Source: an uncultured delta proteobacterium
GTDB lineage: Bacteria; Desulfobacterota; Binatia; UBA9968
Length of the DNA: 64,000 nucleotides
Direction of reading: 5' to 3'
Assembly: GCA_963727625.1 (NCBI GenBank)
Contig: CAVSHR010000004.1
Coordinates: forward strand, 1 to 64,000
Shown here: positions 339 to 12,663 of the stretch, piece after piece
How the letters are laid out: each line of letters opens with the position of its first letter
How positions within the stretch are numbered: position 1 is the first letter of the stretch
Notes under the pieces: generated by a model
What the model was told of the DNA's origin: nothing
Database searches by the model: none
What the model saw: only the letters and a program-made list of their open reading frames with translations
Position numbers and translations under genes: made by a program

Positions 339-545
339 TTGGCCCGTGTGGCCGATCTGATCGAGCAGCGCTGTGGAGTTCGATTCACCGTGGGGCATAT
401 CTGGTGGTTGCTCGGAAAACTCGGCTGGAGTTGCCAGCGGCCCACGGGTCGAGCGCTGCAAAGAGATGAGACTTCAATAGAACGCTGGAAGAAAAAGCGC
501 TGGCCGAAGCTTAAAAAAAAGCCCAGCGGGAGGGGCGCACTATAG
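339..545 (+). CDS. IS630 transposase orfA remnant (winged helix-turn-helix)
   Basis: WT..RVADLIEQRCGVRF..GHIWWLLGKLGWSCQRP motif typical of IS630 N-terminal HTH region. Confidence 0.75.
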   Translation: MARVADLIEQRCGVRFTVGHIWWLLGKLGWSCQRPTGRALQRDETSIERWKKKRWPKLKKKPSGRGAL

Positions 546-1051
546 TGTTCATTGATGAGAGCGGACTGAGCCAGCGTCCGCACCGTTGCAGGACATGGTC
601 GCCGCGGGGACAGACTCCGGTGCTGCAATACTCCTTTAACTGGAAAACGCTTTCGGCCATGGCTGGGGTAACCTGGTGGAATTTTTACTTTCGGCTGTAT
701 CCGGGCAGCATCCGTAGTGCACAGGTCGTTCAGTTTCTCTCTCATCTGATGCGTCACATCCCCAGGGATATGCTGGTGATCTGGGATGGGCTCAAAACCC
801 ATCGCAGCCGATTGGTCAAAGGTTTTGTTGGTCGCCAAAACGGGCGCATTGAACTTGAGTATTTGCCGGCCTATGCGCCGGAGCTCAATCCGGTGGAATA
901 CTTGTGGGGACACTGGAAACACCATGAGCTTCCCAACTTCTGTCCCAAGACCTTTGCGGAGCTCAGCTATCATGCGGTTCGGGCTCTCAAGCGCATGCGT
1001 CGCCGCCCAAGACTGATCACGGCTTTCTGGAAACAAGCGGAATTGTTTTGA
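545..1051 (+). CDS. IS630 transposase orfB (DDE catalytic domain)
   Basis: FIDESG, WDG..H, LPAYAPELNPVEYLW motifs. Confidence 0.9.
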   Translation: MFIDESGLSQRPHRCRTWSPRGQTPVLQYSFNWKTLSAMAGVTWWNFYFRLYPGSIRSAQVVQFLSHLMRHIPRDMLVIWDGLKTHRSRLVKGFVGRQNGRIELEYLPAYAPELNPVEYLWGHWKHHELPNFCPKTFAELSYHAVRALKRMRRRPRLITAFWKQAELF

Positions 1052-1323: not shown

Positions 1324-2538
1324 TTATTCTTTCACTAAGGTTTGTATAATTTCCTCGATGCCGATCGGATAATAATTGATATCGTCGTCAAACACGGCTC
1401 TGGGGAAGAAAACGGAATATCGGGCTCGGATATCATTGGCCGTGATTAATTGCTTGGTGCTAATTTCATTTGGCATTGCTACGGATGACGATGGTTTACT
1501 TTTAGTGTTTTTTAGAGCTTGCCGACGCTGAGCCTCACTTGGGTCCCAGAGCGCAAGTCGTACTCGTAGGGCTCTTTGTTTCCGGGAGTGATACGCGCGC
1601 AGCAACAACGCACGGATTGCAATATCTTCCATTGGCAGCGAGTATCCGATGAAAATCCATTCGTGTGATAGGCGCAGATCTTCCAAAGCCGCGTTCCAAA
1701 TTGAGAGTAGATGAGGTTCTCTAATGTTGCGAACGAGTGATGGTGTCACAAGTACACTGCGTAGGACACCGCCACAGTGACACGTATTGTAAGGTGTCGC
1801 CTTGGTCCAGAACTCGAGCGTTGCGATACGCTGTCTGTCGTTTACATAGAGTGTTCCACATACCTCACAACGTAGCCAGTTTAAAGAGCCATGAAGTTTG
1901 AAGACAGCAAGCGAAGATATTCGAGGGCGGTGATAATCTAAACCAGAAACAGGGTCACGAACCGTGGTACCCATATCAATCAATTTCAGCGGGTGTCGGC
2001 TTCTACGAGTAAATGCGCGGTACAGTGGAAGTTCGTATGCAACGTCGTAGTTCGTGGATACAAGAGTGATTCGTTCGCTGGTTTTCGCGGTCGTGAGGAC
2101 CCATCGGACAAAGTCGCTAACCAGTTTTCGGTTTTTAGACCCGCGTAATACGCCATTTATCGCTATGCTGAGGAGATGTTTGGCCCTACGAAGCTGCGGC
2201 TCCCTGTAGTTTGAAGCGGATGAGCGACCTTCAGCAATTAGCTGATCGACAATTGAAAGAATGTCAATGACGGAGGCTCCGGCCAACCTCTTACGGCCGA
2301 GTCCCGGCAATATTTGGCGGTAAAGCCCTCTCAGTTCTGGCGTGAACTTTGGGTCTCGTTTATCAGCTTTTACCCTCCAATTTGGTTGCCCCTTGGCAGA
2401 CTTGTTTGCCGAAACGGCTTGCCAAATCCTTTTAAGAATGTCGTCTGTTACGGGGTAGCCGAGCGGGGCTGTTGCGCCGGCACCAAGAAAAACGGTAACA
2501 CGCTTGTTAGTTCGCATGGTTTGTTTTGCTTCTTTCAA
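1324..2538 (-). CDS. SIR2-family (SIR2_2-like) NAD-binding protein with Zn-ribbon insert
   Basis: VFLGAGA..LGYP, STNYD, KLHGSLNW, CEVC...CHC, FIGYSLP..D motifs. Confidence 0.85.
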   Translation of the reverse strand: MKEAKQTMRTNKRVTVFLGAGATAPLGYPVTDDILKRIWQAVSANKSAKGQPNWRVKADKRDPKFTPELRGLYRQILPGLGRKRLAGASVIDILSIVDQLIAEGRSSASNYREPQLRRAKHLLSIAINGVLRGSKNRKLVSDFVRWVLTTAKTSERITLVSTNYDVAYELPLYRAFTRRSRHPLKLIDMGTTVRDPVSGLDYHRPRISSLAVFKLHGSLNWLRCEVCGTLYVNDRQRIATLEFWTKATPYNTCHCGGVLRSVLVTPSLVRNIREPHLLSIWNAALEDLRLSHEWIFIGYSLPMEDIAIRALLLRAYHSRKQRALRVRLALWDPSEAQRRQALKNTKSKPSSSVAMPNEISTKQLITANDIRARYSVFFPRAVFDDDINYYPIGIEEIIQTLVKE

Positions 2539-2623
2539 ATTTGGAGACTATTTCTAAATTGTTGTGATAATTATGCAAACGTGTGATCGATTAGATTGGT
2601 TTTTATACATTGGAAAAAATATC

Positions 2624-3430
2624 CTAAGAAAGTTTCGAATGATCCAGTACAGGCCAGGTGTTCGGACCGACAATACCGTCGGGCACAAGCCCATGTGCGG
2701 CTTGAAAGGCCCGCACCGCAGCTTCGGTTTTAGCTCCGAATTGTCCGTCTACGCTAACGCCGATTGTTGCTTGGATTTCATTCGCTAGCTCGCCGGTGGC
2801 TCCACGACGGAGAGTAGGCCGGCCGCGAGAATTAGTAGGATCGTTTGGGCGTTCAAAAGCCGGAATTAATACAGGCGCTGGCGCTGTTCCATTTATGATC
2901 GCGTTAACCGCAGATCGGAAATCATTCATATCGAAGGTAGGATCGGGTTTGCGGCCTGGTGGCAAGGCATATTCTTTGTGTCCAGCACAAAATTCGGCTC
3001 CACGATTAACGTGTTTTAATATGGCCGCAACGCCACGTTGGTAAGCATTAATTTGGACTGTAGGCCAGCGTGAGTCGTTTGATAGTCCGGTATTCTCCGC
3101 TTCTATGCCTATAAAATTTGAGTTGCCGGTTCTCAGACCTTGCCAAATCCCGTCTCCCGCATGGTTCGCTCTACCGGCGGCGATCACAAAGTAAGTTCCA
3201 TCCCGGCCTAGACCGAGTTGTGCCAGCGGGCCCGATAGATCTGGGCGACCGTTAATGAGGGTATTAAGGCTGGGCATATTCCCAGCCTTTGGGCCCGCAG
3301 TGTGATGACAGATGACCCCGAAAATTTGACCAGCGTCGCCGCGGCCGCGGTTTTCCCAATCATCAACCAATGAAACCTTTAGACCCGCATTCATCAGCAC
3401 GTCCGGCAACCAGGTTAGGGAAAGTGCCAT
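2624..3430 (-). CDS. N-acetylmuramoyl-L-alanine amidase (Amidase_2) with C-terminal peptidoglycan-binding domain
   Basis: VICHHTAG, ANHAG, IGIEAEN, GHKEYA..RKPDP. C-terminal TLRRG...DGQFGAKTEAAVRAFQ...DGIVGPNTW (PG_binding_1). No signal peptide. Confidence 0.9.
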   Translation of the reverse strand: MALSLTWLPDVLMNAGLKVSLVDDWENRGRGDAGQIFGVICHHTAGPKAGNMPSLNTLINGRPDLSGPLAQLGLGRDGTYFVIAAGRANHAGDGIWQGLRTGNSNFIGIEAENTGLSNDSRWPTVQINAYQRGVAAILKHVNRGAEFCAGHKEYALPPGRKPDPTFDMNDFRSAVNAIINGTAPAPVLIPAFERPNDPTNSRGRPTLRRGATGELANEIQATIGVSVDGQFGAKTEAAVRAFQAAHGLVPDGIVGPNTWPVLDHSKLS

Positions 3431-3431
3431 A

Positions 3432-4436
3432 TTACGCCACTCCTCCTACCGTGGGTGGTAGTTCCTCATCCGATGTGACTGACTGAATCGGAACATCGCA
3501 TCCATCAATGTTGCTCTCAGCGTCGCTAGATTCTGGTTTGGCAGCATCCTGTGTTGCAGCAGTAATTGTCATCTTTACTGAACTGGAAGTGCCTCCTCCG
3601 GGCGCGGGATTGAATACCGTCACTGTAATCTCCCCCTCGGTTGTGACATCCTCTGACGTAAGCTTGGCGGTCAACTGAGATGCATCGGTAAATGTTGTTT
3701 CACGGCTAACGCCATTGATCAGTATCACTGCTCCTTTCACGAATCCTGCACCTTTCACACTCACAGCCACGTCTTTAGTTCCGGCTTTAATAGTATGGGG
3801 TTCAAGATCAATAATACTTGGTACCGGGTTGGACAGACTGTCCTTTCGTTTGGAATCTCCCTCATTGGGAGCTGTCCTGAACAGAGTATTGAAAACTTCG
3901 TTTAGCTTGTCGGTAGCTTGCTTCGAGAACATCCCGACGAGCCCAGCTAAGGCCGCAATACCGAAGGGGTTGATGTTGCCCGCCTCGGTCCCCGCAGAAA
4001 GAAAACCACCACGAATGGCAACGTAGAAGATGGCCGCTAAAGCCATGCCAATGAATGGTCGTAATATATACCACCACAACCAGTTAGAATTGAATTTCTC
4101 ATTGCCGACATAATCGCCAAACGAGGTTGCGGCATGGATAAAACTCCCCAAACCTCCCGCCGCCAACACCATTAACAAAAGTCTTTGGTCGAGTGTAACT
4201 CCGTCTAGCAAGTCCAAAAAAGGTATAACTTGCTTAGCGTCGCCTTTTGCTTCTGGATTTAACCCAGAAGGCCATAGTGCCAAGAACAAATACGCCAGTA
4301 AAATACCGAAAGCTACTAAGCTCCACCCCATGAGCGCAGTCTGTTTAGCACTCGCAATTTTGGCTGTTTGTTGCGATGTCGGCTGGTCGTTCATTCTTCC
4401 GTTGCTGACAGTTGGGTTGGTCTCATCTTCTGCCAT
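3432..4436 (-). CDS. Multi-pass membrane protein with C-terminal IPT/TIG (Ig-like) domain
   Basis: About 4 hydrophobic segments (GGLGSFIH...WYILRPFIG...AGLVGMFSKQATDKL), then NPVPSIIDLEP..VKGAGF...ITVTVFNPAPGGGTS Ig-like repeat. Confidence 0.75.
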   Translation of the reverse strand: MAEDETNPTVSNGRMNDQPTSQQTAKIASAKQTALMGWSLVAFGILLAYLFLALWPSGLNPEAKGDAKQVIPFLDLLDGVTLDQRLLLMVLAAGGLGSFIHAATSFGDYVGNEKFNSNWLWWYILRPFIGMALAAIFYVAIRGGFLSAGTEAGNINPFGIAALAGLVGMFSKQATDKLNEVFNTLFRTAPNEGDSKRKDSLSNPVPSIIDLEPHTIKAGTKDVAVSVKGAGFVKGAVILINGVSRETTFTDASQLTAKLTSEDVTTEGEITVTVFNPAPGGGTSSSVKMTITAATQDAAKPESSDAESNIDGCDVPIQSVTSDEELPPTVGGVA

Positions 4437-4649
4437 AGTGGTTCTCCTTAAAAATGTACCGCGAAGCGCTAGTGATCGAAATTATTGTTTTTGTTAGTTT
4501 TCCGAGCGTTGACATTACCCAGAAAATCGACCACCAAGATATTCTTCAGAAAATCAGGGGACACATTGTCAAGTGTTATCCGGTGGATGGTTCGGAAATA
4601 TGTATTATGTCCCGGGAATTCCACGGCCCCGGAATTCGCCCAGCTCGGG

Positions 4650-4796
4650 TCAGTCGAAATGGGCGGTAACGTCCCAGGTTTGCTCTATGTTGTTCTTCAC
4701 TGCACGAATCTCTTTAGCGCCGTCGTTTGAGAAGCTCTGGACGACGGTGCCCAAGCGCTCTCCCGGTACGTCCTTCAGCTTTTCTTCTCTTGCCAT
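4650..4796 (-). CDS. 48-aa microprotein of unknown function
   Basis: Manual translation MAREEKLKDVPGERLGTVVQSFSNDGAKEIRAVKNNIEQTWDVTAHFD*. Strong RBS AAGGAGGT upstream, co-oriented inside the gene cluster, below the ORF-track cutoff. Confidence 0.7.
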   Translation of the reverse strand: MAREEKLKDVPGERLGTVVQSFSNDGAKEIRAVKNNIEQTWDVTAHFD

Positions 4797-4819
4797 GGCT
4801 ACACCTCCTTAATTCACAT

Positions 4820-6163
4820 TTAAGGGATTGAGAGTGCGTCAATGGCTCGCTGCCTCTCGTTAGTGTACTCTCTACCGTAGATGAGAGTTGTTGAGGAGAT
4901 GTTGAGGCCGTTGCTCGCTATCCACTTGTTTAGACGACGGCGTAGAGTGAGATCGGTGCTGAGCGCTTGTTCGATTCGTGCCGTTGCGGCATCCGCCGTA
5001 AAAGTTGCCGTTAGCATTTTTGAAATGACATTCGAAAGAAGTGCGATGCAAAGTTCGCGAACTTGCGCGTAGCCCTCTTTCTGGCCACTATCCCAGTTAT
5101 TATAGTTTCGTGGAATATACGTCAGTAAGTCCATGCAGGAGTCGTGCGTATATTCTTTCGAAAGCACAGTTTGTACGATGCCCTGAACTGCGCTAGCGAT
5201 TGACTCCGTCGCCTCTTTGCTCAGTTCCTTGCGCTGCGCTATTGAAGAATTGAATTGACCTGCTCCGGCGGTATTGGCAATAGCGGAAGTCAGAGCTGAG
5301 TCTTTGATGTTTTCTATGGTCTCGCGGGTCTTCTTCGCTTCGGCAAGGAGCGCCTCGTTAGTTTTTACCTGGTTCTCTGCAGCAGCTAGATCGTTTTTTA
5401 AACGGTTCAAATCGTTTTTCTTATTGTCGGCATCAGCTTTCAGTTTTGCGCGATCCTCATCGGTGCCGGTCGAATTCGCTACTGCTTGCTTGTAAGTCGT
5501 ATCAGCAGCCGTCCATTCCACACGTTTGTCGTCCGCGGCTTTCTTGGCCGCATCGCGTTGCTTTTTAGCGTCCTCAAGACCTTTTGCTTTTGCTTCTTCG
5601 TCCTTGCGTGCGGCGTCTAGAAGTTGTTGGTTCGACAGGAGGCTTGCAGAGGCCCCGGCGCCTGCGGTGTTGGTCAGAATAACCTGATTAGCGGCAATTG
5701 CGCCGGTTAGTTGCTCGACTGCGAGGATGCCGGCTGTGAGGTCCTGGCTTCGGCGTAGGAGGGTTGCGACTTGTATCGGACCGATAGCGCCGTTCAAATA
5801 GGACTCGCAGGTTCGGTAGAGGGCATCGCGCATCAACGTGATTGACTGAGTGCGGAGACCGATACTGCCGGCAGAACTGGACAGAGCTTGGGCTAGTGAG
5901 CCTGCTCCTTGACCGGGGACGCTGATACCCAATCCTAAAGCCGATGCGTAAGCTGCAAGGGCGTCGGGACTAGGTTCAGCACAAAAATCTCCTATTGCTT
6001 TCACCATGACTAGACGTTGCTGCGCGTCGAGATGGATGGCGACGCCGTGGTGGCTTGTGGACTGCGGGAGCCAAGTGCGTCTTTCTATTGTTTGCAGGTT
6101 TGCGCAACCAATTAGGTTGAATACACAAATTGTTAAGATCAGAATTGAGAGCTTGCAAACCAT
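4820..6163 (-). CDS. Predicted lipoprotein with central coiled coil
   Basis: Start at ATG 6163 (GGAGG upstream), lipobox LIGC, CAEPSPDA...RDALYRTCE motif, long Ala/Lys/Glu-rich heptad region. Confidence 0.7.
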   Translation of the reverse strand: MVCKLSILILTICVFNLIGCANLQTIERRTWLPQSTSHHGVAIHLDAQQRLVMVKAIGDFCAEPSPDALAAYASALGLGISVPGQGAGSLAQALSSSAGSIGLRTQSITLMRDALYRTCESYLNGAIGPIQVATLLRRSQDLTAGILAVEQLTGAIAANQVILTNTAGAGASASLLSNQQLLDAARKDEEAKAKGLEDAKKQRDAAKKAADDKRVEWTAADTTYKQAVANSTGTDEDRAKLKADADNKKNDLNRLKNDLAAAENQVKTNEALLAEAKKTRETIENIKDSALTSAIANTAGAGQFNSSIAQRKELSKEATESIASAVQGIVQTVLSKEYTHDSCMDLLTYIPRNYNNWDSGQKEGYAQVRELCIALLSNVISKMLTATFTADAATARIEQALSTDLTLRRRLNKWIASNGLNISSTTLIYGREYTNERQRAIDALSIP

Positions 6164-6302
6164 ATGGACCATCCTCCAGTTAATTACGTCAGCAACTGTA
6201 GTGGTTCGATGCAACACATTTTTTATTGTTACACAGCATGTTTCAGCGGGTTTTGTGCCTGTTGTCTAAGGACGGAATGAAGCAATCCGTCGCGTTTAGC
6301 CC

Positions 6303-7178
6303 TCAAAACTGCCCCGTATTCACCCAATCTGCGGAAATGAGCGTCCACCAGTCTTCTGCCAAATCCTGAGTGACGTACTTGTAAGACATCCAACCGTAGC
6401 CCGCGTTGCCCCAGGTTGTCCCCCATGAATTGCGGACGAGTAGGGCGCCGCGGTCGGTACCGATCATGAGATTGTCGTCATAACCGGCGGCGACGATGGC
6501 GTGGCCGCCGCGGTAGTGGCTGTTCGGAGCGGGGAACGCGATTAGGCCGCCGGGAAGGGGGTTGTCGAACTCGCTATACACGGGAAAACCGAACATGCTT
6601 GGGAAGCCGTGGGCGAGATACGTTTTGATACTCGCGAGAACTTGTGTGGGCGAGGTTCCGGCTGAGTCGAGGCGGAAGTATTTTATGGCCTTGTAGTTCG
6701 CGCCGAAGGCATAACAGAATGCGGGAGGCTCGACATCGTAATGGGTGTTGGTGTTGTACGGGCTCCCGTCGTATGGCCAATATTTTTCCGGCGGGGCGCC
6801 AAAAAGGACCAAGGCTTCCATTGCCGTGCGCAAGTAGGCGCCCGTGTCGCCCGTCCAGTTGAGAAGATTTCGCTCGGTCTTGTAGAGGAATAAGCGCGAT
6901 GCGTCGATGTGGCCGCCCTTGCTGCGTCGCTCGAAGTATTCAAGAAGGCCGACGGCGGCATTTGCCGTGCACGAGCCCAGGGAGCCTTGATCTTCGATGG
7001 GAGAGAACCAGTTGCGCAAGTCAACTTGTGAGGGTGGTACTGCTGGTGGTTGTGCGGGCGTCAAGCGTGGAGCAAGTCGTGTTCGATTCAATAAAGGGGC
7101 AACTTCAGGATGATTCTCTGTATAATCACTTGGCTTGGGCACATCAGGCAACCAGCCGAGGCCGCGAAGTTCTTCCAT
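6303..7178 (-). CDS. Papain-like cysteine protease (peptidase C1A, xylellain-like)
   Basis: DQGSLGSCTANA (Gln/Cys), GGHAIV (His), RNSWG (Asn). Start MEELRGLGWLPD with AGGAGA RBS. No signal peptide. Confidence 0.92.
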   Translation of the reverse strand: MEELRGLGWLPDVPKPSDYTENHPEVAPLLNRTRLAPRLTPAQPPAVPPSQVDLRNWFSPIEDQGSLGSCTANAAVGLLEYFERRSKGGHIDASRLFLYKTERNLLNWTGDTGAYLRTAMEALVLFGAPPEKYWPYDGSPYNTNTHYDVEPPAFCYAFGANYKAIKYFRLDSAGTSPTQVLASIKTYLAHGFPSMFGFPVYSEFDNPLPGGLIAFPAPNSHYRGGHAIVAAGYDDNLMIGTDRGALLVRNSWGTTWGNAGYGWMSYKYVTQDLAEDWWTLISADWVNTGQF

Positions 7179-7346
7179 CGGATTCTCCTTTCCGAATTGA
7201 GTAAACCAGCGATCAGTCACCAAAGTACTACACAAAAATCTGACGCCCTATTGCAGCCTCAATTAGTTTCTCCGGCTGAGACTGCTTGCTCTGCTGCGTC
7301 GCGGTTCTAAATAGCGCGTAGCTCGACAGCTGTCCAATATAAAATT

Positions 7347-7382
7347 CCTATATCAGTGATATAGGTTTTTCTTATATCACTG
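7347..7382. promoter_or_regulatory. Palindromic operator, probable LysR-type binding site between divergent genes
   Basis: Perfect dyad CCTATATCA-G-TGATATAGG (7347-7365), overlapped by a second dyad CAGTGATATA...TATATCACTG. Contains T-N11-A. Confidence 0.55.
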
Positions 7383-7777
7383 GGGTCTTTTTGAGGCTTG
7401 GGTTGGTAAACTGGTGACCGGCCGCAATCAGGGGAAATTGTCACGCAGGCTGGCTCTTTCTTACAATCCCCGGAGCTTGCAGACGCCGCCGATGCGGCAT
7501 ATAGCGTTGCGACAACCAGTGTTGACGGTCAGGCAACCAACGGTTACACAACGTTTCCAAGTGGCGACTTGTCAGAGATCGTACGGCCACGCGTCGAGTG
7601 AATTTTATCAACGAATTGCGGACGTGCACCTTATTGACAGCTTTCCTTGGGTTGGCGCGGTTTTTGATTACTAGTCCGGTGGATTCGAAGCAGCTATTCC
7701 ATGGAACGAGTGAATTGAGGCGTGGGGCTCGACATCGCGTTGGCCGCGTAACTGCGGTGACAACCGGGAGGTTAGGC

Positions 7778-8683
7778 ATGACGCTTAGTCAATATTCCTT
7801 TTTCGCGACGGTGGCCAAGCATCAGAGCGTCACCAAGGCTTCGGAAGAGTTGCGGATCAGCCAGCCGTCCATATCGCAGCAACTGAGGCAGTTGGAAAAC
7901 CGGCATGGTTTTAAGCTCTACCGCCGCTTGAGCCGGGGGATCGAAATCACCGAGCGAGGGCAGGCGTTGCTGCGTGACATCACGCCGATCCTCGAGCAAG
8001 TCTCCAAACTGGAGAGCGGTTTTAGCGCGCGACAGCGCAAGCTTGTTCCTCAGGTTTTAAAAGTCGGAGGGACATACAGCGTGTCGGCGGAGCTGCTGCC
8101 CGCGGCGTTGGCGCGTTTACAGCAGCATAATCCTGAAGCCGAGCTTGAGTGTCGGACCGGAAGATCGGAGCAGTTGGAACGGATGGTGCTGGCCTCGGTA
8201 ATGGACTTGGCGGTGATCGCCCAGAAAGCATCCTCGGAAGCATTGGTTTCCGAACCGTTGGCCCGCGAGAAGGTCGTATTGTTCGTGCGGGCCGATCACC
8301 GGTTTGCGAAAATGACTAGAATGAATCCCACGGACTTGGACGGTGAACATTTTATTGTTCGCGGCGGCAGGGGAATTTCGGGGGTTACGGAAAGCGCGGT
8401 GAAACAGTTGCTGGATCGAGGTTTGGAAATAAAAGTCGGCTTGCGCTGCGATAGTCCCGCGGCGGTCATGGCTGCCGTGCGCCACGGAATGGGTGTGGGG
8501 GTTGCGTTCGAGAATACCGTCAAGGCGGAAGTGAGCAGAGGCGAGTTCGCGATTCTTAAAGTTGCCGGTTTAAAGCTGACCGGGGAGACATTCATCGTCT
8601 ATGCGAAAAAACCGCCGTTATCGCCCTTGGCGCAGGAGTTTCTCAGCCTGCTGCGGGAGGAGCGGCGGAATTCTAAAACATAA
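7778..8683 (+). CDS. LysR-family transcriptional regulator
   Basis: MTLSQYSFFATVAKHQSVTKASEELRISQPSISQQLRQLE HTH plus substrate-binding domain. GGGAGG RBS before ATG 7778. Confidence 0.93.
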   Translation: MTLSQYSFFATVAKHQSVTKASEELRISQPSISQQLRQLENRHGFKLYRRLSRGIEITERGQALLRDITPILEQVSKLESGFSARQRKLVPQVLKVGGTYSVSAELLPAALARLQQHNPEAELECRTGRSEQLERMVLASVMDLAVIAQKASSEALVSEPLAREKVVLFVRADHRFAKMTRMNPTDLDGEHFIVRGGRGISGVTESAVKQLLDRGLEIKVGLRCDSPAAVMAAVRHGMGVGVAFENTVKAEVSRGEFAILKVAGLKLTGETFIVYAKKPPLSPLAQEFLSLLREERRNSKT

Positions 8684-8688
8684 TAGCC

Positions 8689-8905
8689 GTTCCAACGGTT
8701 CCAATGACTCCAGTCGTTCCAGAGCCGTGTGCGGAGCCGGCGTGACCGGACACCAAAGTTCAAGTGTTCAAGGTTCAAAAGTTCAACGTCAGGCCCGTTG
8801 GCCGATCGAATAGTTTCAAGGGTTCCAGTAGTTCCAGCCGTTCCACCGCTGCGCACGGTTCAACGCCGTCGCGCGGTTCAAAGTTCAAGGTTCAATAGTT
8901 CAACG
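8689..8905 (+). repeat. Intergenic GTTC(A/C)A short-period repeat tract
   Basis: More than a dozen GTTCAA/GTTCCA units spaced about 7-9 nt, between convergent genes. Confidence 0.7.
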
Positions 8906-8938
8906 ACAGATCCCGCATATTGTCCAATCCAATAGATT

Positions 8939-10708
8939 TCATCTGCGGCGTCTCGGTGGTTTCATCCACGGGATCGGTTTGCCGAGTAGGGGTTTTGGGC
9001 CGACGAGGGCGGGGGATTGTTTGTAGCCCAGATCGGCTAGTCGTTTGGCGGTCTGCTCGATGAGGGCGGTGAAGCTTGGGTTTCGGCCGCGGCGGCGCGT
9101 GTCGCGCAGCAGTTTCACTAGGCAAAACGTAAACGCACCGTAGGCGTTGGCGCCGTCGCGGTACTCGTAGGCAAGTTCTTGCTCCTGGCAGGCTTCCAGG
9201 ATGATCGGCAGGTAGGCGCCGTGGTGATCCAGCGCTTTGCGCTCCCGGTCGTAGCGGGTGTTGGCCAGGCCCCGCAGGGCGACGCCGCGGCCGATGCGGC
9301 GAGTGACGCCGTTGACGCCGAGATATTCGTTGCCGGCCCGCGAGCGGTCGAGCGAGCGATTGAGCACGTCCATATCGCGCTCGATCCACATTTCCATTCG
9401 GCTATCCCAGCGCAGGGCACGATGACGCACGTCGTCGGGCGGGTTGATGCCGCGGGCGCGCGGGCCGCCGTCGCGGGTCAAGCCGCCGGAGTGGCAGCAG
9501 TCGAAGATCGCCGCGAAGCGCGCTTGGTAGGGAAGCTGGCTGTAAAACTCGACGAACTGGTTATCGGTAAAGGCGTGCTGCGGGCTCCAGTCGAAATCGT
9601 AGGGCACCAGGCATTCGTCGAAGCGGTCGACTTCCTCCTTGGCGCCGTAGGCGGGTATCTGGGCGCCGTGGCCGGAGTAAAACAGCACCCGCTCGTCGCC
9701 GTCTCGCACGCCGTCGAGCAGCCAGTGGAGCCGCTCCAGGATCCCGGCCGTGGTGGCGCGATCGTTCAGCACCACGCGGATGTCCTCGGATTGATAGCCG
9801 CATTCCTGCAGCACCGAGCTGATCAGGAAGTTGTCGTTGACGCAGCCTTCCAGTGCATTCGCAGGATTCGGATAATCGTTGATGCCGATAAGCAGTGCGC
9901 GCCGGTTGGGCGGCGGCGCGACGGTTCGGCTCAAGCGAACCGCTCGCGCCAAAGATCGCGCCGGCCGCGGCGCGGCGATATTGAACCAGACGCGGGCCTG
10001 GCTGTTGGCATGGTTGAAGTAATAAATCGGGTCGTGATTGAGAAAGTCGTTGGGCTTGTCGAAGTGAGTCAGGATCTGGGCAAACCGGGCGCTCTGCACC
10101 CGCAGCTCGGCGGTAAACACATGGTCGTCGTCATTATAGAGGTGGTACCACATGCGGGCATCGAGGGGCTCGATGCGGCCGGCGAAACAGTCGCGTACAA
10201 ACGGGTTGGCGATCTGCGAGCCGAAGGTGATGAATACTTTTCCAGTCAAGGCCGTTGGGTTGCGACGAAAGGTGTCGTAGGAAATCAATGACCCCAAGCT
10301 ATGCGCCGCGATGACATCGTAGGTTTGGCCGCCCAACTGTTTGAGCAGACGGGCGCGCAGTTTGGCGCGCAAGTCGTCTTCCGAGCCCCACTGGGCGATC
10401 ATCCCGGCGGTCCATCGCGCCTGTTCGGGCAGGTCGAAGATGCCCCGCGCACCTGGGAGCAAATCGCCAATGCCGTGGACCACGCCGCTGGCCAGCAGCG
10501 TGGCGAAGGCTTTACCGTAAGTAACTGCGTCGAGCGGCGCATGATCGAAAAGATCGTCATAGGTCAGAAAATCGCAACTTACCGCGGCGCTGGGATTCCA
10601 GCGTTGAATGTTTCCCGTGATCGCCTCGGTCCAGGAAGGGACGAGGGCGGGATCAGCGTCGCCATGGCCGACGCCGTGAACGCATAAAATATTGAACGAG
10701 GATGGCAT
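8939..10708 (-). CDS. Alpha/beta-hydrolase + caspase-like (peptidase C14) fusion protein
   Basis: N-terminal VHGVG, AHSLG, ITFGS, DDDHV. C-terminal ALLIGINDY..LEGCVND, YSGHG (His), FDCCHSG (Cys). Confidence 0.88.
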   Translation of the reverse strand: MPSSFNILCVHGVGHGDADPALVPSWTEAITGNIQRWNPSAAVSCDFLTYDDLFDHAPLDAVTYGKAFATLLASGVVHGIGDLLPGARGIFDLPEQARWTAGMIAQWGSEDDLRAKLRARLLKQLGGQTYDVIAAHSLGSLISYDTFRRNPTALTGKVFITFGSQIANPFVRDCFAGRIEPLDARMWYHLYNDDDHVFTAELRVQSARFAQILTHFDKPNDFLNHDPIYYFNHANSQARVWFNIAAPRPARSLARAVRLSRTVAPPPNRRALLIGINDYPNPANALEGCVNDNFLISSVLQECGYQSEDIRVVLNDRATTAGILERLHWLLDGVRDGDERVLFYSGHGAQIPAYGAKEEVDRFDECLVPYDFDWSPQHAFTDNQFVEFYSQLPYQARFAAIFDCCHSGGLTRDGGPRARGINPPDDVRHRALRWDSRMEMWIERDMDVLNRSLDRSRAGNEYLGVNGVTRRIGRGVALRGLANTRYDRERKALDHHGAYLPIILEACQEQELAYEYRDGANAYGAFTFCLVKLLRDTRRRGRNPSFTALIEQTAKRLADLGYKQSPALVGPKPLLGKPIPWMKPPRRRR

Positions 10709-10806
10709 GGTTCATTACCTCCTTAGGTCGAAACCGGGCGGGTCCTTAGAACGGTGCGCTCTGTCGAGGATGCCTAGTGTTTCGCTGTGGGCCGTGCCGA
10801 GGCCTT

Positions 10807-11619
10807 CTAAATAGTGAACGGTTTCTTTGCTTCGAAAGCGGCGTTGGCAGTTCCGATGAAATAGTAGTTCGGTGTTTGCGTGGACGGCATGAGCGAGACG
10901 ATCTTGTCGCGCAGCTTGCGATGGTTGCCCTTGAATCTGCCGCCGTTCCACACCTTCTTTAACGTGCCGGTGAAGGCGCCGTTTTTTTCTCCATCCATGG
11001 AGGTTTGATTGTCCATGCAACCGGCGATGAGCAGCACGCTGGCGGCGACCCGGGTCTTTTCCGCGCCGCGGGTTCGCTTCTGGATGGCGCGGTAAAGCGC
11101 GCGATTGGCGTTCTCCGTCTTGGCGCCGACCGCACGTGGCATGGCGCGCGGCTTCGAGCCGGCGCCGCGGAAGGCGGGGATATCGCGCGTCACCGTGCCG
11201 CTATGACAGCTGTCCGATAGAACTAAAATACGCACTCCCGCTTTGAACTTGCTCCACAGGCCGTAGAGCTCATCGTCGACCAGTTGGCGGTCGAATAGCA
11301 CCCAGGTCTCGTCCATACGGTCGTTGTCCGTCTCGTCGCCGTTGGTGTCGCGTACCTGGCCGCCATGGCCGGAATAGGTGAGAAGAAAGATATCGCCCTT
11401 GGATAATCTTTTAGCCGCGTCTTGAATCGCGGCGGTGACGGCGGCGGCCGTCGCTTGGTTGTCGAACAGCAGGGTGTTGCCGGTAAATCGTCTCTTTTTG
11501 GCCAGGGCGCGCATGTCTCGGGCGTCGGCGATGCAGGCGTTGAGCGCGCCGTCCCAGCCCTGATAGTGTTTCGGATCGACGCGATTCAAGCCGATATGCA
11601 GGGAAATTCCTTTTGCCAT
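10807..11619 (-). CDS. Stand-alone caspase-like protease (metacaspase, peptidase C14)
   Basis: LHIGLN..LNACIADA, YSGHGGQ, SDSCHSG, GCMDNQTS..NGAFT motifs. Confidence 0.92.
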   Translation of the reverse strand: MAKGISLHIGLNRVDPKHYQGWDGALNACIADARDMRALAKKRRFTGNTLLFDNQATAAAVTAAIQDAAKRLSKGDIFLLTYSGHGGQVRDTNGDETDNDRMDETWVLFDRQLVDDELYGLWSKFKAGVRILVLSDSCHSGTVTRDIPAFRGAGSKPRAMPRAVGAKTENANRALYRAIQKRTRGAEKTRVAASVLLIAGCMDNQTSMDGEKNGAFTGTLKKVWNGGRFKGNHRKLRDKIVSLMPSTQTPNYYFIGTANAAFEAKKPFTI

Positions 11620-11750
11620 AAATGCCTCCCCTTTGAGATCTCTTCAGTGCAGTTCAAAGTGTAGAATCCGATGCTTCTTGCTGTCAAGAAAATATCCCGC
11701 ACCGACGGTGCTCTTGGCAAACTTTTCCACTTTTATTTCATTTCTTCACA

Positions 11751-11935
11751 TCACGGCTTCCAGCCTTGGTTGTCGAGCTGATTTTCGGCGTCGTGGACGA
11801 AGCTGAAATCGTAGACGCGTCGCGGCGGCACCATGTGGATTACTTGGGCCACCAGCTTGACGATGGCGAGATCATTTTATTGGCTCTCTGCGTCGACGTA
11901 GCCGCGAGCGCGGTAGGCCATGCGCACGAGGCGGC
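11751..11935 (-). pseudogene. C-terminal remnant of an ABC solute-binding protein
   Basis: Manual translation ...GYVDAESQ*NDLAIVKL...RVYDFSFVHDAENQLDNQGWKP*. Resembles SBP C-termini, has an internal stop and no start. Confidence 0.4.
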
Positions 11936-12018
11936 AAGACACTCGCTGCGAGTGTCATCGAGCTGCGCCACGGAAATTTTCTTTAGGGCGTCTGGGCGAT
12001 ATGGTATCTTAGGCAATT

Positions 12019-12663
12019 ATGAGTACGCGACTATTGTTGCTTTTCTGTTGTGTTTTCGGCTTATCGGCTTGCACCGCATCGACTACGGTTTCACGGGGCG
12101 CAACGCTTCTCTCCGGGCTTAAGGAGTATCAAGGGGACATGCAGCGTTTCAGCGGCTCGCCGTTACGTTGGCCGGACCGGCAGCGGACCGGCGGCAACCT
12201 GAAAAACGTTATTACCGTGACCGTTGGCGCCTCGCCTGAGTTTTATCGCCTGGTCGACCTCGATATCAGAAAAAGAGAGTTCGAGGTCACCCTGCGCGAA
12301 ACCAATGTGCCCGCCGACCGCGTAAAGGAAATGAAAGACGAGTTGATTCAAATGAACCAAGAGATCACCGCGCTGAAACCGGTGATTCGCACCCAGCTGG
12401 CGTCGCTCCGACTTGACACTGCAGCCGAGCATGGCGTCGAAGAAGTGGCTGCGCGCGGCTTGCTGAGCTTGGCGCTGGAGGAGTTTTCCTCTAACCGCCG
12501 CGCGGGCGGGTTTGAGGCGCCGGCCACCAAGGTGGGGCCCTATGTTGTTAGCGATTTAGGCTCGTTTGCGACGGTGCGTGGCCCGGACGGGCGGAACTAT
12601 CGCTGCGTGGTTTTCGGCGTGGCCGAAGAAGGCGCCGGCATCAAGTGCGAACCAGTGAAGTAA
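12019..12663 (+). CDS. Hypothetical lipoprotein
   Basis: Signal peptide with lipobox LSAC, central coiled coil. Confidence 0.65.
   Translation: MSTRLLLLFCCVFGLSACTASTTVSRGATLLSGLKEYQGDMQRFSGSPLRWPDRQRTGGNLKNVITVTVGASPEFYRLVDLDIRKREFEVTLRETNVPADRVKEMKDELIQMNQEITALKPVIRTQLASLRLDTAAEHGVEEVAARGLLSLALEEFSSNRRAGGFEAPATKVGPYVVSDLGSFATVRGPDGRNYRCVVFGVAEEGAGIKCEPVK

Follow-up and report, generated by a model that had tools for sequence, protein, structure and literature searches.

A conserved gene pair of a membrane protein and a phage-type amidase within a mosaic six-gene stretch of an uncultured delta proteobacterium

Six co-oriented open reading frames (ORFs) occupy the minus strand near the start of contig CAVSHR010000004.1 of an uncultured delta proteobacterium, and encode a SIR2-family protein, an N-acetylmuramoyl-L-alanine amidase, a membrane protein with an IPT domain, a microprotein, a lipoprotein, and a papain-family (C1) cysteine peptidase. 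The question raised by this stretch is whether the genes form one system. An initial annotation of the DNA had proposed that all six could be a single envelope-anchored conflict system, with the lipoprotein and the membrane protein, which has four transmembrane helices (4TM) and an Ig-type domain, as sensors, the C1 protease as activator, and the amidase and SIR2 as effectors. The window analysed here is the first 64 kb (64,000 nucleotides) of the contig, from a host genome of 6.6 Mb. The cluster is not one system but an accessory, mosaic island of independent mobile units, and the membrane protein and amidase genes within it are a truly conserved, widespread, and undescribed pair. The two proteins are probably physically coupled, with the C-terminal tail of the membrane protein predicted to lie over the catalytic site of the amidase.

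The membrane protein and amidase gene pair

The amidase consists of an Amidase_2 domain (59.2 bits, Pfam cutoff 26) followed by a PG_binding_1 domain (52.4 bits). It matches 1081 phage records, the best being an amidase of a Bradyrhizobium phage, 49% identical over 82% of the query, and lysin A of mycobacteriophages, and it also matches PDB 9hna (E 5.5e-22). In an alignment of 16 sequences, H42/H43, E110, H151, K161 and D163 are invariant or nearly so; following AmpD and T7 lysozyme, we take these to be the ligand and catalytic residues. Both the Pfam score and the conserved zinc and catalytic positions identify the protein as an amidase of the Amidase_2/PGRP type. Its N-terminus, MALSLTWLPDVLMNAGLKVSLVDDWENRG, lacks the hydrophobic stretch of a signal-anchor-release (SAR) endolysin, and none of the hydrolases found as partners of the membrane protein family has a signal-peptide-like N-terminus.

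The stop codon of the membrane protein gene and the start of the amidase gene are separated by 1 nt (position 3431). Relatives of the membrane protein were gathered from one genome per species, which gave 224 genomic relatives, of which 80 loci were kept (designated L with a number where single loci are named). An amidase of the window type (56–72% identity) starts between −38 and +2 nt from the membrane gene stop in 15 of the 80. These 15 loci belong to Ramlibacter, Massilia, Trinickia, Pseudomonas and Pyrinomonadaceae/Blastocatellia, i.e. to Pseudomonadota and Acidobacteriota, and alignments of the tail and of the amidase showed an intact pair, kept by purifying selection in both phyla. In a clustering of all ORFs of the loci, shadow frames and a set of 17 nearly identical loci from Pseudomonas predominated.

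The membrane protein ends in a segment of 28 residues with the form ..D-G-C-(7 residues)-T-x-D-x-x-L-P-x-x-x-G-G-V-x. Nine positions of this tail (D311, C313, T321, D323, L326, P327, G331, G332, and V333) are invariant in the alignment, in which the adjoining IPT domains are 27–46% identical. The motif is present in 15 of 15 membrane proteins linked to an amidase and in 0 of the 62 other complete anchors, three of the 80 anchors having run off their contigs and hence standing outside the count.

Prediction of pairwise complexes, a check proposed in the initial annotation, supports the coupling for this pair. The amidase was modelled with the IPT-plus-tail fragment (residues 200–334) and a zinc ion, using our own 16-row alignments, and the models scored 0.87, 0.87, and 0.88, as compared with 0.01 for the best of three controls. 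Of the benchmark complexes, 116 of the 157 with a solved structure attain this mark, as do 2 of the 215 pairs that were mismatched; the calibration is only rough here because of the alignments supplied and the zinc riding along. The runs share at least 74% of contacts, with a predicted local distance difference test (pLDDT) value of at least 79 for the partner. On the fragment side the interface comprises residues 108–135 only, which are residues 307–334 of the protein, i.e. the tail. On the amidase it comprises residues 42–47, 110, 151 and 160–163, which include the conserved His/His, Glu, His and Lys/Asp, together with parts of the linker and of PG_binding_1. The model thus makes a residue-level prediction, namely binding of the tail segment D311-G-C313...L326-P...G331-G-V across the catalytic site of the amidase, where C313 would approach the zinc.

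The membrane protein belongs to a family of at least 1142 relatives at E<=0.001, that is, more than 1000 proteins from at least ten phyla, and is wholly uncharacterised; the portions of the literature available to our search held nothing on the family or on a membrane-tethered chromosomal lysin. In the AlphaFold2 model (mean pLDDT 73.4) a variable N-tail precedes helices at residues 30–54, 82–111, 117–142, and 157–187. The 4TM domain is the conserved core of the family, with a WxWWYxLRP box and invariant residues H101, S105, W119, W121, Y123, P127, N156, K172, and Q173. A fold search with this domain returned generic helical bundles only, including pieces of G-protein-coupled receptors (Z 8–9.4), and its Atlas neighbours are only unnamed clusters of 203–236 aa. 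The protein does not match LrgA (PF03788) at E<=0.01; its sole match is a weak one to MIP (17.8 bits, cutoff 25). No member of the family was found by a pattern scan of IMG/VR (2.9 million viral contigs) or by tblastn against 50,697 phage records, and plasmids gave only three partial matches.

The domain that follows the helices was assigned to the IPT/TIG type by both profile and fold. The NCBIfam model CoaZ_rpt_PGGG matches residues 204–291 (E 1.7e-27, 95.3 bits, cutoff 30), and the modelled fold matches the IPT/TIG domain of EBF3 (Z 12.1, root-mean-square deviation 2.1, 86 aligned residues) as well as EBF1 (Foldseek, VIA). The Pfam family PF01833 (IPT) is found on homologues, the window protein itself falling below Pfam reporting.

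Lysine and arginine together make up ~0.14 of the residues in the N-tail, in loop 2 and after the fourth helix versus 0.06 in loops 1 and 3, a ratio of ~2.3. Some family members carry CBS domains in place of the IPT domain (31.3 bits in L070 and 29.2 bits in L094, cutoff 24; five more below threshold), and CBS domains are cytosolic modules. Because of this charge bias and the homologues with CBS domains, the N- and C-termini, the IPT domain, and the tail are probably located in the cytoplasm, as is the signal-less amidase. A cytosolic IPT domain is more likely than one that acts as a sensor on the outside. The members with fused CBS domains are L070, L074–L076, L086, L093 and L094, and L092 has a like C-terminal sequence with no Pfam CBS match. 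L094 has a GH46 gene upstream and a SIR2_2 gene downstream, and L086 has PG_binding_1 plus an M15 peptidase downstream.

Interchangeable partners and the proposed lysis module

The enzyme encoded downstream of the membrane protein gene varies within the family. Among 70 downstream ORFs scanned from the 80 loci, Amidase_2 was found in 16 (15 of the window type, and L062 with an SH3 domain instead), PG_binding_1 with a weak GH19 match in 3 (20–22 bits, cutoff 25.5), Peptidase_M15_4 in 2 (one at 24.6 bits, cutoff 25), PG_binding_1 only in 1, SIR2_2 in 3 (L042, L060, and L094, starting 21–38 nt past the membrane gene), and Exo_endo_phos, of the endonuclease/exonuclease/phosphatase (EEP) family, in 1. 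Upstream of the membrane gene, GH46 was found in 2 loci and SpoIID in 1. Therefore, a murein-directed gene adjoins the membrane gene in 25 of the 80 loci. A quick tree of the 4TM domain has a tight acidobacterial clade (10 rows, 98% SH-aLRT) in which the partner switches between amidase, GH19 and SIR2, and amidase-linked copies fall in at least three places of the tree.

The SIR2 of the window is of the SIR2_2 family (PF13289; 28 bits, cutoff 24.5), with motifs that align with those of the L042, L060 and L094 proteins, and is a probable NAD-consuming effector. It has at least 556 relatives, and its subfamily gave one weak match among 400 other genomes of the phylum. In L042, a SIR2 relative of 29% identity lies 21 nt after the membrane-IPT homologue, and the more distant SIR2_2 proteins of L060 and L094 match PADLOC ThsA models (E 5e-11 and 2e-17, respectively). 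With a hidden Markov model built from the four SIR2 proteins, four further loci showed SIR2-like ORFs at a distance of up to 6 kb, namely L033, L051 (with two such ORFs), L057, and L095. The SIR2 of the window was most likely acquired with the module as a second effector; it shares the composition of the module, is attached loosely, and is not obligatory. In L057 and L095 the gene order is SIR2-like ORF, nSTAND1-WD40 NTPase (821 and 1262 aa, respectively), and 4TM member, the 4TM protein of L095 having 199 aa and no IPT domain.

On balance, the pair is read as a chromosomal, holin-like programmed-lysis module, a 4TM protein with a tethered, latent phage-type lysin, and we hold this reading to be somewhat probable. 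The amidase would be made in the cytosol, having no export signal, and the tail would capture the newly made enzyme at the inner face of the membrane, covering its zinc catalytic site. Docked in this way, the lysin would be kept in an inactive state and separated by the membrane from its substrate. A trigger, which by analogy with holins may be membrane stress or depolarisation, would then switch the 4TM domain to a state in which the enzyme reaches the murein, with cell lysis as the outcome. Synthesis in the cytosol and capture by the tail are supported by the sequences, the co-occurrence, and the complex model; gating by the 4TM domain and the ensuing lysis are proposed by analogy with holins, SAR endolysins and autoinhibited amidases. 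The gene pairing, the co-occurrence of tail and amidase, and the strong in silico interface are direct results; the topology and the inhibition are presumed.

Several observations weigh against the lysis reading. The complex score is a model confidence, obtained with our own 16-row alignments and a zinc ion and only roughly calibrated. The CoaZ_rpt_PGGG family is typical of surface proteins, which fits an outside location for the IPT domain. The 4TM domain is 50–60% identical across phyla, with invariant His, Asn and Trp residues; because this conservation and its size exceed those of typical holins, the domain may be a sensor, channel, or enzyme and not a hole-former. No recognised hydrolase neighbours the membrane gene in ~55 of the 80 loci. 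The link to SIR2 amounts to 3 of 80 loci plus the window, and a window-type SIR2 is downstream in 0 of the 15 amidase-type loci. Finally, the defence context is modest. In 22 loci, ORFs of >=170 aa within 6.5 kb were collected, and 125 of the 164 were scanned with PADLOC; at E<=1e-12, 7 of the 125 matched (TIR, PDC-S05 twice, a ThsA-like SIR2, mad2, HEAT, and one non-defence desaturase model), and one upstream ATPase matches mad3 (E 6.8e-33). A conflict or programmed-death flavour of the locus is plausible, as is a role in defence.

A broader proposal, which we regard as possible but doubtful, is that the family makes up an undescribed class of membrane-gated suicide or immunity modules. An inner-membrane gate or sensor would hold interchangeable latent cytosolic effectors through partner-specific C-terminal tails or domains and would release them upon infection or envelope damage. 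The effectors would be phage-derived amidase, GH19-like muramidase, M15 peptidase, SIR2 NADase, and an EEP-family enzyme, and in the window a lysin and a SIR2 would stand behind one gate.

A non-suicidal use of the pair is rather unlikely. Holin-endolysin pairs serve the secretion of chitinase and toxins in Serratia, Salmonella and Clostridioides, and the present pair could likewise act in holin/endolysin-type (type 10-like) secretion or wall remodelling, with a local opening of the murein through which cargo, vesicles or DNA would be released, or in the control of a housekeeping amidase. This would suit a membrane protein with a signal-less lysin that is chromosomal and absent from phages, and many of the loci lie among ordinary metabolic genes, with the few PADLOC matches given above. 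However, no conserved cargo or third gene was found among the neighbourhood ORFs of the membrane protein/amidase pair, the SIR2 and EEP partners are cell-killing effector types and not wall-remodelling enzymes, and the module is patchy and horizontally spread, unlike a housekeeping function, its full-length membrane protein being absent from 60 close-relative genomes, in which IPT-only partial matches occur in 8.

It is less probable still that the pair is an addiction module of the toxin-antitoxin kind, in which the amidase is the toxin and the membrane-protein tail a tethered antitoxin that stabilises the island. The predicted cover over the catalytic site, the strict co-occurrence of tail and enzyme, a gene spacing (−38 to +2 nt) typical of coupled pairs, and the mobile, IS-flanked setting would all be expected of such a module. 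A cytosolic murein amidase is harmless until exported, however, and hence the conservation of the 4TM domain is left unexplained by inhibition alone. This domain also pairs with unrelated enzymes and with CBS domains, and apart from the three partial matches its relatives were not found on plasmids. A decayed prophage lysis cassette amid otherwise junk sequence is highly improbable, for although the amidase is of the endolysin type with its 1081 phage matches and mobile-element debris lies nearby, the membrane family has no relatives in IMG/VR or in the 50,697 phage genomes, the first 30 kb of the window hold no other phage genes, and the pair is intact and selected across two phyla.

Neighbours of the membrane family at single loci include a Type IIG restriction-modification gene upstream in L075, and in L022 (Massilia) a TIR-domain gene at 10383–11177 on the minus strand (PADLOC TIR effector, E 1.1e-24), ~0.7 kb beyond the module amidase. 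In the Acidobacteriota, a protein of 560–680 aa recurs directly 5' of the 4TM-IPT gene (L030, L031, L034, L036, and L044, also L055 and L069). It matches no Pfam, NCBIfam or PADLOC family and may be a third component in this phylum. Kinship with the lipoprotein of the window was considered for it and ruled out (hhalign probability 0.1%).

The remaining genes and the borders of the stretch

The position of the pair among the six genes was judged from the 80 membrane-protein loci and from a second scan of 80 metagenome loci around relatives of the lipoprotein. Around the membrane-protein relatives, tblastn and phmmer found a full-length amidase in 15 loci and a window-type SIR2 in 1, and C1, lipoprotein and microprotein homologues in 0 of the 80. 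Around the lipoprotein relatives, C1 was found in 2 of the 80 loci and the amidase as a single weak partial match, and neither the membrane protein nor SIR2 occurred in any of them. The 60 close-relative genomes gave 3 partial matches to the lipoprotein and 6 matches to C1, the best at 43% identity. The cluster is not one system because the six families do not occur all together in any of the 80 + 80 loci, with which the split in GC content at third codon positions (GC3) agrees. This content is 0.47 for SIR2, 0.465 for the amidase and 0.48 for the membrane gene, as compared with 0.53 in the lipoprotein gene and 0.65 in both the microprotein and the C1 gene, the latter value being close to that of the host LysR gene at 0.66.

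Three units can hence be distinguished, namely the membrane protein plus amidase, the lipoprotein plus microprotein, and SIR2, with a genuine though loose link to the membrane family. Neither the pair of lipoprotein and microprotein nor the C1 protease is related to the lysin module, beside which both came to lie as cargo. The spacer between the microprotein and membrane genes is likely the boundary between two units, because the units flanking it do not co-occur elsewhere; in the spacer between the amidase and SIR2 genes, a hairpin scan detected no terminator-like hairpin.

What the initial annotation described at the level of sequence was upheld. The six co-oriented genes and their domains agree with the ORFs and with the Pfam, lipobox and IPT evidence, and the 1-nt gap between the membrane and amidase genes is as reported there. 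The named motifs are present in the translations of SIR2 (KLHGS, GAG, and TNYD) and C1 (GSC...GGH...NSWG). The cluster is indeed more AT-rich than the window, with a GC content of 0.510 as compared with 0.565 for the remainder, which is near the floor of all 5.8-kb windows (minimum 0.498, mean 0.561, sd 0.016). At the borders, the IS630-family transposase is clear (DDE_3, 97.5 bits), a MITE-like (miniature inverted-repeat transposable element) repeat pair was found, and the assignment of a REP-associated tyrosine transposase (RAYT) is weak, the match being below cutoff (Y1_Tnp E 0.0064, 17 bits, cutoff 23) and truncated at the contig start. On the other side, at 7.2–7.6 kb, nothing MITE-like was seen besides a hairpin at 7347–7383.

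As to function, the pairing of membrane-IPT protein and amidase and the recurrence of SIR2 beside the membrane family stand, and the six-gene system falls. Its appeal lay in genes that are co-oriented, closely spaced and set in an AT-richer, IS-flanked stretch, to which the C1 homologues near 2 of the 80 lipoprotein relatives and the recurrence of SIR2 may be added. Set against this are the failure of most of the gene pairs to co-occur in either set of loci, an outcome that the initial annotation had itself named as counting against its model, the 213-nt spacer with its hairpin and promoter-like box that splits the two halves, the unlike GC3 of the halves, and the travel of the lipoprotein and microprotein alone on plasmids. 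PADLOC recognised no system, giving only weak generic SIR2 matches (best E 8.6e-7), and no support was found for the lipoprotein as envelope sensor or for C1 as activating protease. A single six-gene system is accordingly a very remote prospect. That a tidy six-gene operon proves to be three unrelated mobile units is a caution for defence mining by adjacency in single genomes.

Table 1. Features of the window discussed in the text, in order of position.
Feature	Coordinates	Strand	Description
IS630-family transposase	339..1051	+	two frames (339–545, 545–1051); DDE_3 97.5 bits
MITE-like inverted repeat pair	1119–1138/1308–1327		20 nt, 90% complementary, 169 nt apart; abuts SIR2 stop codon
SIR2_2-family protein	1324..2538	-	397–404 aa; GAG(AT), TNYD and KLHGS motifs and CxxC...CxC insert
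Spacer, amidase/SIR2	2539..2623	-	AT-rich, 85 nt (106 nt to ATG at 2517)
N-acetylmuramoyl-L-alanine amidase	2624..3430	-	signal-less; Amidase_2 (35–164) and PG_binding_1 (226–260), Pfam; phage endolysin type
Membrane protein	3432..4436	-	334 aa; variable N-tail, four transmembrane helices, IPT/TIG-like domain, C-terminal docking tail (predicted); ORF, AlphaFold2
C-terminal tail of membrane protein	3435..3518	-	residues 307–334; predicted amidase-docking, active-site-covering segment
IPT/TIG-like Ig domain	3558..3827	-	residues ~204–293; NCBIfam and fold matches
4TM domain	3876..4349	-	residues ~30–187; no Pfam family
Spacer, microprotein/membrane gene	4437..4649	-	213 nt; GC-rich inverted repeat (hairpin) and TTGACA box
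Microprotein	4650..4796	-	48 aa; strong ribosome-binding site, start 23 nt after lipoprotein stop
Lipoprotein	4820..6163	-	465 aa ORF 4820–6217, 447 aa from internal start; conserved N-domain, long coiled-coil hairpin, helical C-domain
Papain-family (C1) cysteine peptidase	6303..7235	-	cytosolic; probable start 7178; Peptidase_C1

The lipoprotein has at least 607 relatives, and the Cys of its lipobox, LIGC, which follows the internal start, is invariant in the family alignment. The lipoprotein, the microprotein and the membrane protein have no Pfam family above cutoff in the scan of the six proteins. The model of the lipoprotein (mean pLDDT 66.3) is confident only in the coiled-coil hairpin, with the conserved N-domain at pLDDT <50, and its fold matches are generic coiled coils. 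Homologues of the microprotein were found by jackhmmer (E 1e-18 to 1e-21) directly 3' of the lipoprotein gene in L099, L100, L121, L124, L125, L131, and L136. These are 7 of the 8 loci in which the lipoprotein matches to its C-terminus, and 7 of the 65 with >=200 nt downstream. The microprotein is a real conserved gene tied to the lipoprotein.

Among the loci with both genes are small plasmids, on which Rep, Mob/relaxase, restriction-modification and toxin-antitoxin genes also occur. As a plasmid-borne envelope protein, the lipoprotein may act in exclusion or surface protection. On the Rep/Mob plasmids L121, L124, and L131 the pair lies beside EcoRII-type and type I restriction-modification genes and an RHH-PIN pair. 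The lipoprotein ORF of L121 is interrupted, and L124 has a second microprotein copy at 888–1037.

The C1 protease has no signal peptide and belongs to Peptidase_C1 both by score (54.1 bits, cutoff 20.7) and by its intact QGSLGSC, GGHAIV, and NSWG motifs. A copy of 42% identity, split into two ORFs, follows the microprotein on plasmid locus L121, and in L126 a distant relative of the lipoprotein has a copy of 48% identity at a distance of 3 kb. The sole good homologue in the genus (43% by hmmer, 38% by tblastn) lies in L188, at 4051–12539, among genes of an extracellular contractile injection system (eCIS). From these settings, C1 behaves as mobile, effector-like cargo; it may be tied loosely to the lipoprotein pair and has no tie to the lysin module. 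The eCIS genes of L188 encode an AAA+/WHD ATPase, Pvc16_N, and two proteins with eCIS_core domains, one with a sub-threshold M35 peptidase match and one with a DUF922 domain.

Further features of the window adjoin the cluster. The split of the IS630 transposase over two frames may be a programmed frameshift or decay. Past the LysR gene lie two caspase-family (Peptidase_C14) genes, at 8939–10708 and 10807–11619, both on the minus strand and with a GC3 of 0.78, unlike the cluster. The first encodes 589 aa with a weak match to the NCBIfam model 'caspase, EACC1-associated type' (37.8 bits, cutoff 140) and a PADLOC caspase match of E 2.2e-17. The interval that separates LysR from the caspase genes has two copies of a 27-nt direct repeat (GTTCAAGGTTCAA...), at 8766–8792 and 8883–8909, which are 93% identical and 117 nt apart.

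Comparison with known systems

The SIR2 of the window resembles the SIR2 defence effectors of Thoeris (ThsA), DSR1/2, SIR2-HerA and SIR2-pAgo in keeping the GAG, TNYD and HG motifs, and gives weak PADLOC SIR2 matches. The gene stretch differs from each of these systems. Unlike Thoeris, the six proteins include no ThsB/TIR and no SLOG domain as judged by Pfam and PADLOC. DSR1 and DSR2 have more than 1000 aa as compared with 404 aa here, and no Dsr model matches at E<=0.01. Unlike SIR2-HerA, the SIR2 gene adjoins the amidase gene and the MITE/IS630 elements, with no HerA or ATPase domain in the cluster, and unlike SIR2-pAgo there is no Argonaute partner among the six genes.

The membrane protein and amidase are closest to the holin-endolysin pairs of phages, including those of pinholins and SAR endolysins. 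As in these, a membrane gene abuts the gene of a murein hydrolase without an ordinary secretion signal, one kind of membrane partner goes with enzymes of several classes (amidase, GH19-like, and M15), and the enzyme is probably latent until a membrane event. In contrast to holins, the membrane protein of the module was not found in phages, is larger with its 334 aa, shows high conservation between phyla, and has cytosolic IPT or CBS domains. The latent state is also predicted to come from the tail of the partner in trans and not, as in SAR endolysins, from an anchor within the enzyme.

CidA and LrgA are likewise chromosomal, non-phage 4TM proteins linked to the control of autolysis. They have no sequence relation to the membrane protein of the module, are small, lack IPT and CBS domains, and are not known to be encoded beside a dedicated tail-docked lysin. 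Type 10 secretion shares with the module a chromosomal holin-like protein and a peptidoglycan hydrolase used by the cell itself, and differs from it in that here no conserved cargo gene was seen and no homology to known holins was found.

AmiA, AmiB and AmiC, which act with EnvC/NlpD and FtsEX, are exported Amidase_3 enzymes whose active site is occluded in cis by a helix of their own under the control of a membrane complex. The module is similar in that a murein amidase would be held off by a peptide segment under membrane-protein control. However, its enzyme is a phage-type Amidase_2 of the cytosol, for which the predicted cover comes in trans from the tail of the membrane partner.

If the proposed mechanism is true, a phage endolysin has been taken over by cells and combined with a non-phage membrane protein, which stores and disarms it by means of a short docking tail. 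This manner of holding a self-destruct enzyme in check would be new. The membrane protein would in addition serve as a modular scaffold, given that one membrane domain occurs with several killing enzymes that are unrelated to each other. The module would represent a cellular, modular, and tail-docked version of the theme of a membrane protein plus a lysin.

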